DNA of 64,000 bases from a virus (Duplodnaviria > Caudoviricetes), in IMG/VR virus record IMGVR_UViG_3300012953_000012, positions 64,001 to 128,000 of that record. One strand, written 5' to 3'. Numbering within the stretch: position 1 is the stretch's first letter; each line of letters starts with the position of its first letter. Of the stretch, positions 12,697 through 31,217 are shown piece by piece. The notes under the pieces are model-generated. The model had not been told where the DNA came from. It saw only the letters and a list, made by a program, of their open reading frames with translations, and made no database searches. A program made the translations under genes and the position numbers.

Positions 12697-12727
12697 TACT
12701 TACGGAAGCAGCACCCCCTTTTAACGG
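12697..12727 (-). promoter_or_regulatory. Class E (early-type) motif TTAAAA-N9-GCTTCCGTAAGTA, copy 1
   Basis: Minus strand ccgTTAAAAgggggtgctGCTTCCGTAAGTA. Confidence 0.75.
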
Positions 12728-12739
12728 GGCGGGATCAAA

Positions 12740-13135
12740 CTACTTGCCCAGAGCGCCCGACACCGCTGCCTTGAAGAACAAGGCACCGAAGGTGCCGAGG
12801 AGATGCCCGGCCTTCTTGACTGCCTGACGGGCCGACTTCTTTTCGGCTCGTTCGGCATTCTGGAGGGCAGCCACAGCATCACTCGCGACACGAGGGCTGG
12901 CCCAATCGATCTTCGGGGTCTCGCCTCGCAGCATCTTGTTGATCTCACGCTTCGCGATCTTGACGCCCTCAGGGCCGAGATTCTCAACGGCGTCAGCCAT
13001 CAAGGAGAGCACGAGCGCCTTCGTGGGGTCATCGGCATCGGAAGCCAGTGCGTCCAGTTCCTCCTGAGCCTTCGCGACGGCAGCGTTGCCGACCAGTGGG
13101 ATCAGGGACTCCAGGGTGCTTGAAAAGTCAGACAT
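12740..13135 (-). CDS. Hypothetical helical protein with hydrophobic C-terminal segment
   Basis: GAGGA RBS; co-oriented with lipoprotein; ends HLLGTFGALFFKAAVSGALGK. Confidence 0.65.
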   Translation of the reverse strand: MSDFSSTLESLIPLVGNAAVAKAQEELDALASDADDPTKALVLSLMADAVENLGPEGVKIAKREINKMLRGETPKIDWASPRVASDAVAALQNAERAEKKSARQAVKKAGHLLGTFGALFFKAAVSGALGK

Positions 13136-13138
13136 GGC

Positions 13139-13537
13139 TCAGTCCTCCTCGGCGGGTTCGGGTGAGGCGGCAGGTGCAGCGGGGAGCGGGCAAGACAAGG
13201 GAGCGATTTCTGGCGGTTGCTCAGACGGCTCTGCCTCGATCATCCCAGCGTTCCACAGGCTCATGGACTTGTGCCACTCATGGCGAGCCTCGATGGTCAG
13301 CACGAAGTCCGCAGCCTTCTCGCACTCGGGGTCAGAGAACTGGGGTCCCTCGGCATCCGACTCGCAGGAGCAGTGCTCTTCGATGAAGGTCCGAAGGTAC
13401 TTGGCCTGCTGGGTAGCCCAGTTGTCGTACTGGTCGAGTTCGGCCTGATAGACACGGGCGTCCCGCAGGACGGTCTTGTGGGCGCACCCGGCTGTCAGAC
13501 TGACAGCGACGAGAAGCGCGGTGATTTCTGCTTTCAT
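13139..13537 (-). CDS. Putative lipoprotein
   Basis: MKAEITALLVAVSLTAG|C signal-peptide-II-like N-terminus; GGAGG RBS; Pro-rich C-terminus. Confidence 0.65.
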   Translation of the reverse strand: MKAEITALLVAVSLTAGCAHKTVLRDARVYQAELDQYDNWATQQAKYLRTFIEEHCSCESDAEGPQFSDPECEKAADFVLTIEARHEWHKSMSLWNAGMIEAEPSEQPPEIAPLSCPLPAAPAASPEPAEED

Positions 13538-13541
13538 GGCG

Positions 13542-13599
13542 ATTCGCCTCCAACGATGGTTCACCGGACTATACCGGCGACACATCGTTGGAGGCGAAT
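13542..13599 (-). promoter_or_regulatory. RBS-sequestering hairpin (perfect 17-bp stem) upstream of lipoprotein gene
   Basis: Arms 13583-13599 and 13542-13558 are exact reverse complements; 3' arm contains GGAGG. Confidence 0.85.
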
Positions 13600-13611
13600 A
13601 GAGGGGCTACC
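13597..13611 (-). promoter_or_regulatory. Class L (late-type) motif GGTAG-cccct-CTAT
   Basis: Matches TAG-N5-CTAT; CTAT overlaps the start of the hairpin 5' arm. Confidence 0.7.
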
Positions 13612-13918
13612 ACCAGTGGTGGTCAGGGTGGGAATCCAACTCGGCAACGTAGGCGGCCACGGCGGCAGCATCCCGAGCAGCCTCGATGGCTCCCACAGCC
13701 CGCTCCAGGGCAGCGTAGCGAGCGGGGTGCTCCAGGATCATGTCGGGGTCGAGGTCGATGCCGAAGGCGTCCTTGAGGGACACCGTTTCAATCTCGGCCT
13801 CTTCGCCGGGTTGGTCCCAGGTCGCAGCGCAACCAGGGGAGTAGGTCAGGGAGCCGGTCACGATGCCCATTCCGGGCAGGGTCACAGCGTCTTCGGTGGT
13901 CAGGGTCACAGTAGGCAT
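13607..13918 (-). CDS. Hypothetical protein
   Basis: CTGGAG RBS before ATG 13918 (MPTVTLTT). Confidence 0.6.
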   Translation of the reverse strand: MPTVTLTTEDAVTLPGMGIVTGSLTYSPGCAATWDQPGEEAEIETVSLKDAFGIDLDPDMILEHPARYAALERAVGAIEAARDAAAVAAYVAELDSHPDHHWW

Positions 13919-13955
13919 GGGGTCTCCAGGGTGGGGGTCAACAACGCCGAAAATG

Positions 13956-29564: not shown

Positions 29565-29697
29565 TTTGGTCTCCAGCAGAGGGGCGAGGGGAGCGGGTGA
29601 GGACAGAGCGGAGCCACACCCCGACGAGCGGGGTGTGGGCCAGGATCACGGCGAGTGCAGCCCACTCGCCGTGGCAGTTGGTCAGGTGCATGTGCAT
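29557..29697 (-). CDS. 46-aa hydrophobic peptide (absent from ORF track)
   Basis: TGATG overlap with upstream stop; MHMHLTNCHGEWAALAVILAHTPLVGVWLRSV...; fills the operon gap exactly. Confidence 0.45.
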   Translation of the reverse strand: MHMHLTNCHGEWAALAVILAHTPLVGVWLRSVLTRSPRPSAGDQSV

Positions 29698-30110
29698 CAC
29701 AGATCCCACAGTTCGTTGAAGGTGGGCTGACGACCCAACTCCGCGAGTAGGCGGCGCTTTTCAGCGTTGAGCCGACGCGCAGCAGCACGGACCTGGGAAG
29801 CGGAACGCTCGCCATCCCACGACAGGTTTTCGGGGGACAGGCGGGACTCGACCCGGCGCAGGTCCTGGATGATGAGGACATCGGGGCGCTTCGCCTTCGG
29901 GGCGGGAGCCGCGCCGTTGGCAGGGCGGACCAGGGACGGGTGGACACGCCACTTCGTTCCGGCCTTGCGGATGCGGGACTGACCTCGCTCACCCATCTGC
30001 TCGATGCTGATGGACTTGCGGTTGACACGCTTGACGATGCCTCGGGTCTGCTCGCCGTTGGGGCGACCGAAGATCACTTCGTCGCCAATGTTGAAAGAGG
30101 GGGTGGACAT
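29697..30110 (-). CDS. SH3-like domain plus LSPENLSWDGE-motif protein
   Basis: CTGGAGAG RBS; FNIGDEVIF...GIVKRVNRKS; first gene after class E copy 4. Confidence 0.65.
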   Translation of the reverse strand: MSTPSFNIGDEVIFGRPNGEQTRGIVKRVNRKSISIEQMGERGQSRIRKAGTKWRVHPSLVRPANGAAPAPKAKRPDVLIIQDLRRVESRLSPENLSWDGERSASQVRAAARRLNAEKRRLLAELGRQPTFNELWDL

Positions 30111-30155
30111 GGGACTCTCCAGGGTTGGCCGCTCAGTGCGGCACACGGGTTCACC

Positions 30156-30186
30156 TACTTACGGAAGCAGCCGCAGGTTTTAACGG
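30156..30186 (-). promoter_or_regulatory. Class E motif copy 4
   Basis: Minus strand ccgTTAAAAcctgcggctGCTTCCGTAAGTA. Confidence 0.75.
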
Positions 30187-30218
30187 GCAGGGCTGGACTT
30201 TCTTTTTTTCGGAGGTGC

Positions 30219-30249
30219 CCGTTAAAAGTGCCCCCCGCTTCCGTAAGTA
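30219..30249 (+). promoter_or_regulatory. Class E motif copy 5 (divergent from copy 4)
   Basis: ccgTTAAAAgtgccccccGCTTCCGTAAGTA. Confidence 0.75.
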
Positions 30250-30298
30250 GGTGAACCCCCTTCCACTCAGTGCCCCACAGGGGCCAACAGGAGATCCC

Positions 30299-30931
30299 GT
30301 GACTACCATTCGACCCTTTGACCGCGCTGCTGACCACGTCGCCGCTACCGCTCGTCGCCTTCCAGCGAACTTCGGCTGGCGGCGTGTGACCGTTTCCCTG
30401 GAGGACCGCGAAGCCGTGGTCCGCTTCATGGCCAACGCCGTCACCTGGCGCGAACTCAACTCGTGGCAGGGTGAGCGGGTCGGCAACGACGCTGCCCCCT
30501 GGCACATGGTCCAGGACGCCGAGCGAGGCTGGCGCGACTTTGGCGACTTCCTCTCCGGGATCGCTTTCCGCGACGTCCTCGGTCGCTGCCTTGAACTGGG
30601 CGGCAGCCAGGGCTGGGCTGACTGTGTGCCCAGTTGCTCCAGGGACGCGACTGCCGAAGAGATCATCGAGGCCACGAAGGCTGCGATCATCGAGGCCAAC
30701 GAAGAGGGCGAGATCGACGAGGACGACCTTGCGGTCCTGTCCCTCCCTCCCGCCGTCCTGGTGGCCGTCCACATTCGGATGGAAGCCCGCTTCATGGAGG
30801 CCATCCGTGAGGACCCCGAGTTGATCATCGACGGCTCCGTGGGGAGCATCCAGCGCGACATCCAGGCCCGTTGGGGTCGGATGCTTGAGTGGCTCACGGC
30901 TTCGGAGGCACAGGAGGCCGTCAGTGCTTGA
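30299..30931 (+). CDS. Hypothetical acidic protein
   Basis: CAGGAG RBS before GTG 30299. Confidence 0.65.
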   Translation: MTTIRPFDRAADHVAATARRLPANFGWRRVTVSLEDREAVVRFMANAVTWRELNSWQGERVGNDAAPWHMVQDAERGWRDFGDFLSGIAFRDVLGRCLELGGSQGWADCVPSCSRDATAEEIIEATKAAIIEANEEGEIDEDDLAVLSLPPAVLVAVHIRMEARFMEAIREDPELIIDGSVGSIQRDIQARWGRMLEWLTASEAQEAVSA

Positions 30932-31217
30932 CCCCACCACCGCCGGGGTCGTGTCCCTGTTCCTTCCGGGGCTGGGGCAACTGCTCACAGGCAAGCCGGG
31001 CCGAGCCCTCTACTTCGGGTTCCTGGCCCTGTTCGTCTGGACGGTGACCTTCGCCGTCTTCGGCTGGGTCATCAACGTCCTGGCCGCGCTCGATGCGTGG
31101 CACCGCGCCCAGCCTGAGATTGAGCCGGTGCCCGTTAAAAGTGCCCCCTGCTTCCGTAAGTATGTGGAGGCCCCTGCTTCCAACGTCATCCCCTTTCCAC
31201 ACCCCGACACGCACTGA
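30924..31217 (+). CDS. Small membrane protein (TM2-like)
   Basis: CAGGAGG RBS; AGVVSLFLPGLGQLLTG...ALYFGFLALFVW. Confidence 0.6.
   Translation: MLDPTTAGVVSLFLPGLGQLLTGKPGRALYFGFLALFVWTVTFAVFGWVINVLAALDAWHRAQPEIEPVPVKSAPCFRKYVEAPASNVIPFPHPDTH
31132..31162 (+). promoter_or_regulatory. Class E motif copy 6 (inside 3' end of membrane-protein ORF)
   Basis: ccgTTAAAAgtgccccctGCTTCCGTAAGTA. Confidence 0.75.

Follow-up and report, generated by a model that had tools for sequence, protein, structure and literature searches.

The window analysed here is a stretch of 64,000 nucleotides, bases 64,001-128,000 of the IMG/VR virus record IMGVR_UViG_3300012953_000012 (G000 below; 205,564 bp, 62% G+C), and it carries six copies of a bipartite element, TTAAAA-N9-GCTTCCGTAAGTA, which we call class I, which face clusters of small genes and which very probably are promoters. 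The source is an uncultured giant marine phage of ~257 kb: genes for a DNA polymerase A, an NAD ligase and baseplate proteins mark it as a large tailed phage, and its genome length follows from a sibling record (G001; a sigma-like gene at ~20 kb, one promoter pair at 127.7 kb) that overlaps both ends of G000. The copies and the A/T tracts beside them are listed here, with start codons given by their distance downstream.

12692-12728, minus strand: class I copy 1, CCCGTTAAAA-N9-GCTTCCGTAAGTA-GGTGG; 52.7 bits; start codon of a 65-aa gene at 43 nt
14479-14515, minus strand: class I copy 2, left arm of divergent pair 1; 52.5 bits; a 149-nt structured leader, then four small genes
14525-14588, no strand: two A runs between copies 2 and 3 (14525-14531 and 14583-14588), resembling upstream promoter (UP) elements
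14600-14636, plus strand: class I copy 3, right arm of divergent pair 1; 60.4 bits; ATG 14686 at 54 nt
30151-30187, minus strand: class I copy 4, left arm of divergent pair 2; 58.2 bits; start codon at 45 nt
30200-30209, no strand: T-rich tract common to copies 4 and 5, between the divergent arms
30218-30254, plus strand: class I copy 5, right arm of divergent pair 2; 57.4 bits; GTG 30299 at 49 nt
31131-31167, plus strand: class I copy 6, putative internal promoter at the end of a doubtful 97-aa open reading frame (ORF); 58.5 bits; ATG 31238 at 75 nt; heads a 165-aa gene, a 77-aa gene and the NAD-ligase gene

The genes that these copies face, together with one motif of another kind, are the following.

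12456-14335, minus strand: small genes of copies 1 and 2 (65, 131, 132, 103 and 105 aa), no family match
14686-16624, plus strand: genes of copy 3 (197, 287 and 90 aa), no family match
16834-16848, plus strand: CGGTAG-N5-CTAT, another putative phage promoter class, which heads the baseplate genes and bounds the copy 3 unit
26722-30110, minus strand: five genes of copy 4 (137, 202, 169, 249 and 254 aa), the first with a weak Phage_ProQ_C_like match
30299-34632, plus strand: genes of copies 5 and 6 (210, 97, 165, 77, 641 and 121 aa), the 641-aa product being an NAD-dependent DNA ligase; CGGTAG-N5-CTAT follows next at 34708

Anatomy of the class I element

With up to three mismatches allowed, exactly six matches to TTAAAA-N9-GCTTCCGTAAGTA are found in the window, each with 0 mismatches, and 100 dinucleotide-preserving shuffles gave a mean of 0.00 matches and a largest count of 0. 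The core sites lie at 12697-12724(-), 14484-14511(-), 14604-14631(+), 30156-30183(-), 30222-30249(+) and 31135-31162(+). The original prediction of six invariant copies with a fixed 9-nt spacer is borne out, none being expected by chance; of its coordinates, the three minus-strand starts and the end at 31162 are right, and the plus-strand starts that it gave as 14601, 30219 and 31132 are 3 nt low (14604, 30222 and 31135). It had also described two back-to-back pairs separated by A/T tracts, which are indeed present (14484-/14604+ and 30156-/30222+, with the three runs listed above between their arms), and had every copy pointing into a small-gene cluster. This too holds: the baseplate genes beyond the 14604(+) copy have their own CGGTAG-N5-CTAT at 16834-16848, so that this copy serves the 197-, 287- and 90-aa genes only.

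A first-pass search (at most two mismatches in a 13-mer) returned 16 copies in the record, and a weight matrix run over the whole 205.6 kb returned 17 class I sites at 38-62 bits, with none at 12-38 bits and a shuffled maximum of -8. Given this gap in scores, class I is a discrete set, of which the window holds exactly six members. The 17th and more diverged copy, GCTCCCGTAAGAC (38 bits; G000 167,440-167,476, minus strand), precedes a 127-aa SWIM zinc-finger gene.

Aligned, the copies give a consensus of five parts: an A/T tract; ccCGTTAAAA; a 9-nt spacer ending in CT; GCTTCCGTAAGTA; and nGTGA followed by a C-rich leader. Conservation thus extends beyond the core first described, to CCG ahead of TTAAAA and nGTGA behind GTAAGTA. 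The spacer is itself constrained, being nearly free of A, with C at position 5 in 16 of the 17 copies, C at position 8 in all 17 and T at position 9 in 15. Laid out as a promoter, the element has an A/T tract ~12-20 nt upstream, a -35-like GTTAAAA, a gap of 13 nt, a -10-like CCGTAAGTA, and nGTGA at the expected start. An A/T run of at least five within the 28 nt upstream of the -35-like box is present in 13/17 copies, against a background of 2%; in the sibling lineages B and C, introduced below, the same test gives 12/15 and 9/22, and the background is 1-5% across lineages. An A/T-rich tract like that of UP elements, which lie at about -40 to -60, is therefore a regular part of the element, and the carboxy-terminal domain of the RNA polymerase alpha subunit (alpha-CTD) may well bind it.

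All 17 copies are intergenic or at the extreme end of a gene, and each is co-oriented with a downstream start codon, which lies 43-77 nt away in 13 of the 16 sites measured and behind longer leaders in the other three. The units so headed encode small non-structural proteins without a family match, the NAD ligase, a DUF3228 protein, the SWIM protein and an AAA_5/VWA pair, a content that probably fits an early or delayed-early class. It is the strict orientation, the intergenic position, the set distance to the start codon, the upstream A/T tract and the small non-structural genes downstream that lead us to regard the element, with high confidence, as a promoter.

What kind of promoter can be narrowed further. 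As had been noted, it is not a canonical sigma70 promoter: a consensus scan finds 0 sites in window positions 12001-32000, TTAAAA matches at four of six positions and TAAGTA at two of six without the final T, and the versions of lineages B and C are further from consensus. Sigma70-like sites in all intergenic DNA of the record number 3, against 5.8 +/- 2.7 in shuffles. The loose likeness to sigma28/sigmaD (FliA) promoters, TAAA-N15-GCCGATAA, does not stand up: TAAA and CCG are 14 nt apart as opposed to 16, two bases too close; CCGTAAG is without the A of CCGATAA; and lineages B and C, with their architecture intact, have no TAAA. Thus the suggestion of a strong early promoter for a host alternative sigma or a virion-delivered factor is supported as regards promoter behaviour and not supported as regards a sigma28/sigmaD-type or other host sigma; virion delivery of the reader is possible but unnecessary, since the best candidate gene, described below, has its own conserved host-type promoter.

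Lineage comparison

The record represents one lineage (A) of a group in which two others were compared with it: lineage B (G002 and G003, from the same sample), with a median protein identity to A of 78%, and the deeper lineage C (G004, 297 kb). Synteny between G002 and the record spans 50.5-115.5 kb of the latter, at nucleotide identities of 70-86%, and the alignments break exactly at the promoter sites. In place of the GTTAAAA...CCGTAAGTA of lineage A, lineage B has GTTGGAG...CCGTAnCTA and lineage C has GTTCAAC...CCGTATAGG. Thus G002 carries GGTTGGAGC-N10-YYCCGT, then AnCTA..GAG, at each orthologous place (7 copies), and G003 holds 7-8 further B-type copies; no A-type copy is found in G002 or G003. 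G004 holds 21-24 copies of GGGGGGTTCAAC-N14-CCGTATAGG. Six first genes of G000 class I units have an orthologue in G004, and in five of them a C-type motif precedes the matched region by 62-120 nt; the sixth match begins at residue 172, and the C-type copy at 209444(-) is placed before the inferred start. Counts by motif are as follows.

A-type: G000 13, G002 0, G003 0, G004 0
B-type: G000 1, G002 7, G003 8, G004 1
C-type: G000 0, G002 0, G003 0, G004 21
CGGTAG-N5-CTAT: G000 18, G002 11, G003 16, G004 25

Shorter contigs carry further versions, among them GTTAATC..GTTCCCGTAAGTA, GGGGGGTTCAAGA..ATCCGTGTCCCC and GGGGGGTTCACGA.., and all versions keep the A/T tract, the GTT that opens the -35-like box, a CCGT 13-14 nt past the box, a G-rich start region and a leader hairpin. 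The -35-like box is the part that changes most between lineages, and the -10-like part changes too. Across the three lineages CGT(A) is invariant, the -35 triplet is AAA in A, GAG in B and AAC in C, 14-15 nt separate this triplet from CGT, and copies within a genome are near-identical. On these features the layout resembles that of promoters read by extracytoplasmic function (ECF) sigma factors, and not that of sigma70 or sigma28 promoters.

The other motifs of the same phages are unchanged. CGGTAG-N5-CTAT has 20 matches in the record with T allowed at the third base and 18 under the strict pattern, all intergenic and mostly 22-73 nt before start codons, where it heads the baseplate genes and other large genes; six are at window positions 5664, 16834-16848, 34708, 35385, 43282 and 44632, and the record has 14 more. 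We take it to be a second, unchanged phage promoter class. A third motif class, GGGGGG-N18-CGGTAT, lies upstream of the gene for protein P0099 (window 24150-24200, minus strand) and is kept in G002 and, as GGGGG-N18-CGGTAC, in G004, so that GGGGG-N18-CGGTAT/C is unchanged across the three lineages. One class is therefore rewritten in concert, with position, architecture and the other classes kept, which argues for a reader that acts in trans, is not the same from phage to phage and is thus phage-encoded.

Candidate readers and known parallels

Two sigma-like genes are candidates for this reader.

G000 188,076-189,365, minus strand, outside the window: P0100, 429 aa, sigma-like
23182-24090 of the window, minus strand: P0099, the slower-evolving sigma-like gene, with a weak Sigma70_r2 match

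Overall, we consider it reasonably likely that class I is read by P0100 as a phage-encoded, ECF-like sigma factor acting on the host core RNA polymerase. P0100 has no Pfam or PHROG match, and P0099 likewise lacks a PHROGs match. An AlphaFold model of P0100 built on 111 relatives reaches a predicted local distance difference test (pLDDT) score of 95 (the single-sequence model, at 38, is useless), and Foldseek gives as its best PDB matches nearly all the holoenzyme sigmas (SigB, SigH, SigA, sigma32, SigL and sigmaE), with a best probability of 0.97 (E 0.011) and 220-270 columns aligned to the sigma chains. Aligned by hhalign to 18 bona fide ECF sigmas from two bacterial genomes, regions 4.1-4.2 fall in register (probability 76%, E 2.2e-5); language-model features match ECF sigma / Sigma70_r2 clusters at 0.95, and rows 1 and 4 of an ESM Atlas shape search are sigma clusters (template modelling (TM) score 0.30). 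A region 4 helix-turn-helix is thus found in P0100 with moderate, not strong, support. The protein has in addition an extra N-terminal domain and a C-terminal winged helix; the latter fills the VIA-align list, which is uninformative on the sigma-like part.

Evolutionary rates point the same way. P0100 orthologues are only 58.6% (B) and 36.0% (C) identical, where the median orthologue between A and B is 78% identical, and P0099 orthologues are 81.8% (B) and 66.7% (C) identical; the slow P0099 thus pairs with the unchanged motifs and the fast P0100 with the rewritten one. The P0100 family, which forms 145 clusters at 50% identity, has an invariant scaffold in its region 4.2-like helix and variable residues where the helix is expected to face DNA, even in a 95%-identical relative. 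A metagenome homologue, P0105, is a mosaic whose N-terminal domain is 96% identical to that of P0100 and whose sigma2/sigma4-like part, at 62-67%, resembles another lineage, which suggests that the DNA-reading module has been exchanged by recombination.

The gene for P0100 is itself preceded by TTGACC-N17-TA and a conserved leader, kept in six lineages amid diverged flanks, and this is the sole conserved site of its kind in the 205-kb record. The -10 region there (G000 188,076-189,500) reads GCTACAAC after TTGACCC-N14, which presumably fits the Caulobacter-type housekeeping consensus TTGACGS-N10-14-GCTANAWC and is a mere hint to the host.

In this context, the general pathway can be proposed. 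The host sigma70 holoenzyme would make P0100 from the TTGACC-N17-TA promoter; P0100 on the host core RNA polymerase, with the alpha subunits on the A/T tract, would then turn on the 17 class I units, and the other phage motifs would follow later. Each lineage has, before the same genes, a promoter version of its own along with its own predicted DNA-reading helix in P0100, and the two appear to co-evolve as a private code.

At the same time, a number of points weigh against this model. All Foldseek E-values for P0100 exceed 0.001, at TM scores of ~0.2-0.3; Pfam Sigma70_r2 is found in 0 of 111 family members and Sigma70_r4 in just 4; and in profile searches against PDB sequences the C-terminal winged helix is the only part picked up. 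P0100 is accordingly a remote sigma only, at best so for region 2. Its pairing with the promoters rests on three lineages and relative rates and is not a statistical covariation test; the other sigma-bearing and promoter-bearing contigs are short and come from different samples, and yield no further lineage pairs. The uniqueness of TTGACC-N17-TA was rejected as a statistical argument, the bare pattern occurring at chance frequency in the siblings, and its -10, TACAAC, is weak, being without the final T, and escapes the consensus scan; for these reasons only its positional conservation is counted. About 20% of the genome was read solely through the 96%-similar sibling record G001, and both the "early" timing and the position of the transcription start are assigned provisionally, from sequence.

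An unlikely alternative is that the promoter is read by another phage factor, either P0099 or an activator on the -35-like box combined with another sigma on CCGT, in the manner of T4 MotA/AsiA. P0099 is ECF-sigma-like too (Sigma70_r2 E 0.04; language-model match to ECF sigma clusters at 0.96) and located between the window copies, the -35-like box is the most variable part, as expected of an exchangeable activator site, and a 77-aa helix-turn-helix protein with a Sigma70_r4 match exists in the record (175,750-175,983). Yet P0099 varies little between lineages, like the unchanged motifs, and is probably not the reader of class I; the 77-aa protein was set aside as a general reader, since tblastn finds none in lineages B and C; and the -10-like part also varies and is not sigma70-like, so that host sigma70 with an activator misfits.

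It is improbable that a host alternative sigma of ECF or sigma28 type reads the element, the lineage differences being those of the hosts. The ECF-like layout (a -10 with CGTA, a -35 with AAC or AAA) would suit such a sigma, and the sibling phages could infect different hosts. The original prediction had proposed a scan of host genomes for the motif as a guide to host and sigma, which proved fruitless: the exact motif, searched on both strands in one genome per species (185,579 species, 596 Gb), gave 7 single hits, against a rough estimate of ~4 expected by chance for 19 fixed bases, and no genome had two copies. Furthermore, the two other promoter motifs of the same phages are identical across the same lineages, and the sigma28 misfits in spacing, -10 and loss of TAAA were given above. 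Host ECF sigmas are normally kept inactive by anti-sigma control, and the phage has sigma-like genes of its own.

A phage-encoded or virion-delivered RNA polymerase, single-subunit or phiKZ/AR9-like, is a distinctly improbable reader. Promoters of phage polymerases typically have near-invariant copies, as here, many of the jumbo phages carry polymerase genes of their own (PMC5449584, PMC9209446), and the phage has several very large proteins without a family match, one of 3824 aa. On the other hand, no RNA_pol_Rpb2_6 match is found in G000, G001, G003 or G004, and none to the T7-type polymerase (PF00940) in G000, a weak negative given that the positive control gave no signal; and a bipartite element with a partly free spacer and an A/T tract suits a sigma and alpha-CTD better than the contiguous promoter of a phage polymerase. 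That the element is not a promoter at all, but an operator (as the original prediction had also allowed), a recombination or packaging site or a mobile repeat, is highly improbable, for although the copies are very similar and some form inverted pairs, the element lacks dyad symmetry, 17/17 copies face the same way as the gene that follows, in most cases from a fixed distance, positions are kept in siblings while the sequence is rewritten, unlike a mobile repeat, and no target duplications or transposase-like context are seen.

A sigma cascade like that proposed for P0100 is of a known kind; the unusual part is a single class rewritten lineage by lineage. In phiEco32, gp36, a distant sigma homologue, reads middle and late promoters (PMC12276001). 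There, as proposed here, host sigma70 transcribes the first genes and a remote phage sigma on the host core then reads a non-sigma70 motif before later genes. The phiEco32 motif differs in being a single AATGTA box centred at -11.5 and in requiring the helper gp79; class I is bipartite, has an A/T tract and no known helper, and is rewritten between siblings. SPO1 offers a cascade of gp28, then gp33/34, with a switch from host sigmaA to phage sigmas (PMC13401047). As proposed for the present phage, SPO1 has several promoter classes in one large phage, read by the host core with different sigmas, host sigmaA first. The SPO1 promoter consensus sequences differ from class I, and to our knowledge no lineage-specific recoding of one SPO1 promoter class has been described.

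In Bacillus subtilis, sigmaW promoters (TGAAAC/CGTA, spacers of 14-17 nt) are close to consensus (PMC5758882). The class I element shares with ECF (group 4) promoters a -10 that starts with CGT(A), a -35 with AAC at its end in lineage C and AAA in lineage A, a 14-15 nt spacer, near-consensus copies and, if P0100 is the reader, a reader with two sigma domains. Unlike ECF sigmas, P0100 has the extra N-terminal domain and winged helix, fails Pfam Sigma70_r2, has no adjacent anti-sigma, and is not autoregulated by its own promoter type, a host-type promoter standing there instead. T4 middle promoters, with a MotA box and AsiA-remodelled sigma70, similarly have a phage-specific box at about -30 in place of the host -35; they differ in a sigma70-type -10 (TAnnnT), where class I has a CCGTA-type -10 and no MotA- or AsiA-like gene was identified. 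In the T7 group (T7, T3, SP6 and K11), promoters and the specificity element of the polymerase co-vary between lineages. The likeness to that group lies in many near-identical promoters per phage, differing between related lineages along with the reader's specificity element; the difference lies in its single-subunit polymerase and contiguous promoter of ~23 bp, as against an apparent sigma on the host core and one of three classes rewritten.

More tentatively, we see here a clade of giant marine phages with natural, mutually orthogonal sigma/promoter pairs, in which a P0100-family sigma and the 15-25 promoters of a genome are rewritten together while the other classes stay fixed, a proposal that we regard as a serious possibility. 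If it is true, each lineage has a private early-transcription code, which could insulate it from co-infecting relatives or from interference by host or phage anti-sigmas; copy correction may be what keeps the promoter-leader cassettes of a genome alike. For uncultured giant phages, most of whose genes have no known function, the P0100 model would provide a concrete transcription programme, from host-type promoter to phage sigma to early regulon to the other classes. The contrast of one class rewritten at ~78% protein identity with two others identical is unusual, and hints at how sigma/promoter specificity shifts with 15-25 promoters in step. The pairs are candidates for orthogonal sigma/promoter pairs in synthetic biology, and the motif has practical use in marking early genes, helping to delimit operons and helping to assign metagenomic contigs to a lineage.

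Leaders, neighbouring genes and other observations

The leaders behind class I are C-rich, and 13 of 14 end in CCCAG(T/A)G, a G+C stem of 4-5 bp with a loop of 3-5 nt, CAA, GGAG and the start codon. The stems vary by compensatory changes (GCCCC/GGGGC, GCCGC/GCGGC, GCTGC/GCAGC), and the cassette is retained in the sibling lineages with the rewritten promoter; it may affect translation or stability, or be bound by an RNA-binding protein. The hairpins in the window are these.

14659-14680, plus strand: GCCGC-CCA-GCGGC, CAA, GGAG, before ATG 14686
30116-30142, minus strand: GCCGC-ACTGA-GCGGC and GGAG, behind copy 4
30272-30293, plus strand: GCCCC-ACA-GGGGC, CAA, GGAG, before GTG 30299
31209-31229, plus strand: ACGC-ACTGA-GCGT and AGGAG, behind copy 6

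A general 5'-terminal hairpin directly after the motif was considered and rejected: it is strong in some copies, and the mean energy does not differ from that of random 36-mers (P = 0.13). The first gene behind copy 4 (29697-30110, minus strand) matches Phage_ProQ_C_like weakly (E 3e-4, below the cut-off); its product may bind RNA, and the leader hairpins could be its targets.

The leader of copy 2 (window 14330-14478, minus strand; 149 nt) stands apart: it folds at -71.5 kcal/mol (z = -5.0, 0 of 200 shuffles as stable) and contains a T-arm-like GGTTCGTATCC. ARAGORN and Rfam find nothing in it, a counterpart is absent from the sibling records, and it may be a small RNA made from the class I promoter. 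Over the window and the remainder of the record, tRNA scans and Rfam likewise find nothing.

The 197-aa protein of the copy 3 unit has 98 homologues in metagenomes, one of them filed under a Planctomycetaceae metagenome-assembled genome, a mere hint to the host, and as an IMG/VR query it finds one related locus; the 210-aa protein alone finds none there, and a "distant" blastn of a 7.9-kb query against a phage collection gives no match. No family was found for the 3824-, 1196-, 1454- and 1785-aa proteins, the first of them a 3824-residue ORF at G000 128,029-139,503 without any Pfam or PHROG match. At G000 165,722-170,604, an AAA_5 ATPase (401 aa) and a VWA/CobT-like protein (548 aa), each with its own class I copy before it, form a CobS/CobT-like pair of a type often seen in marine phages.

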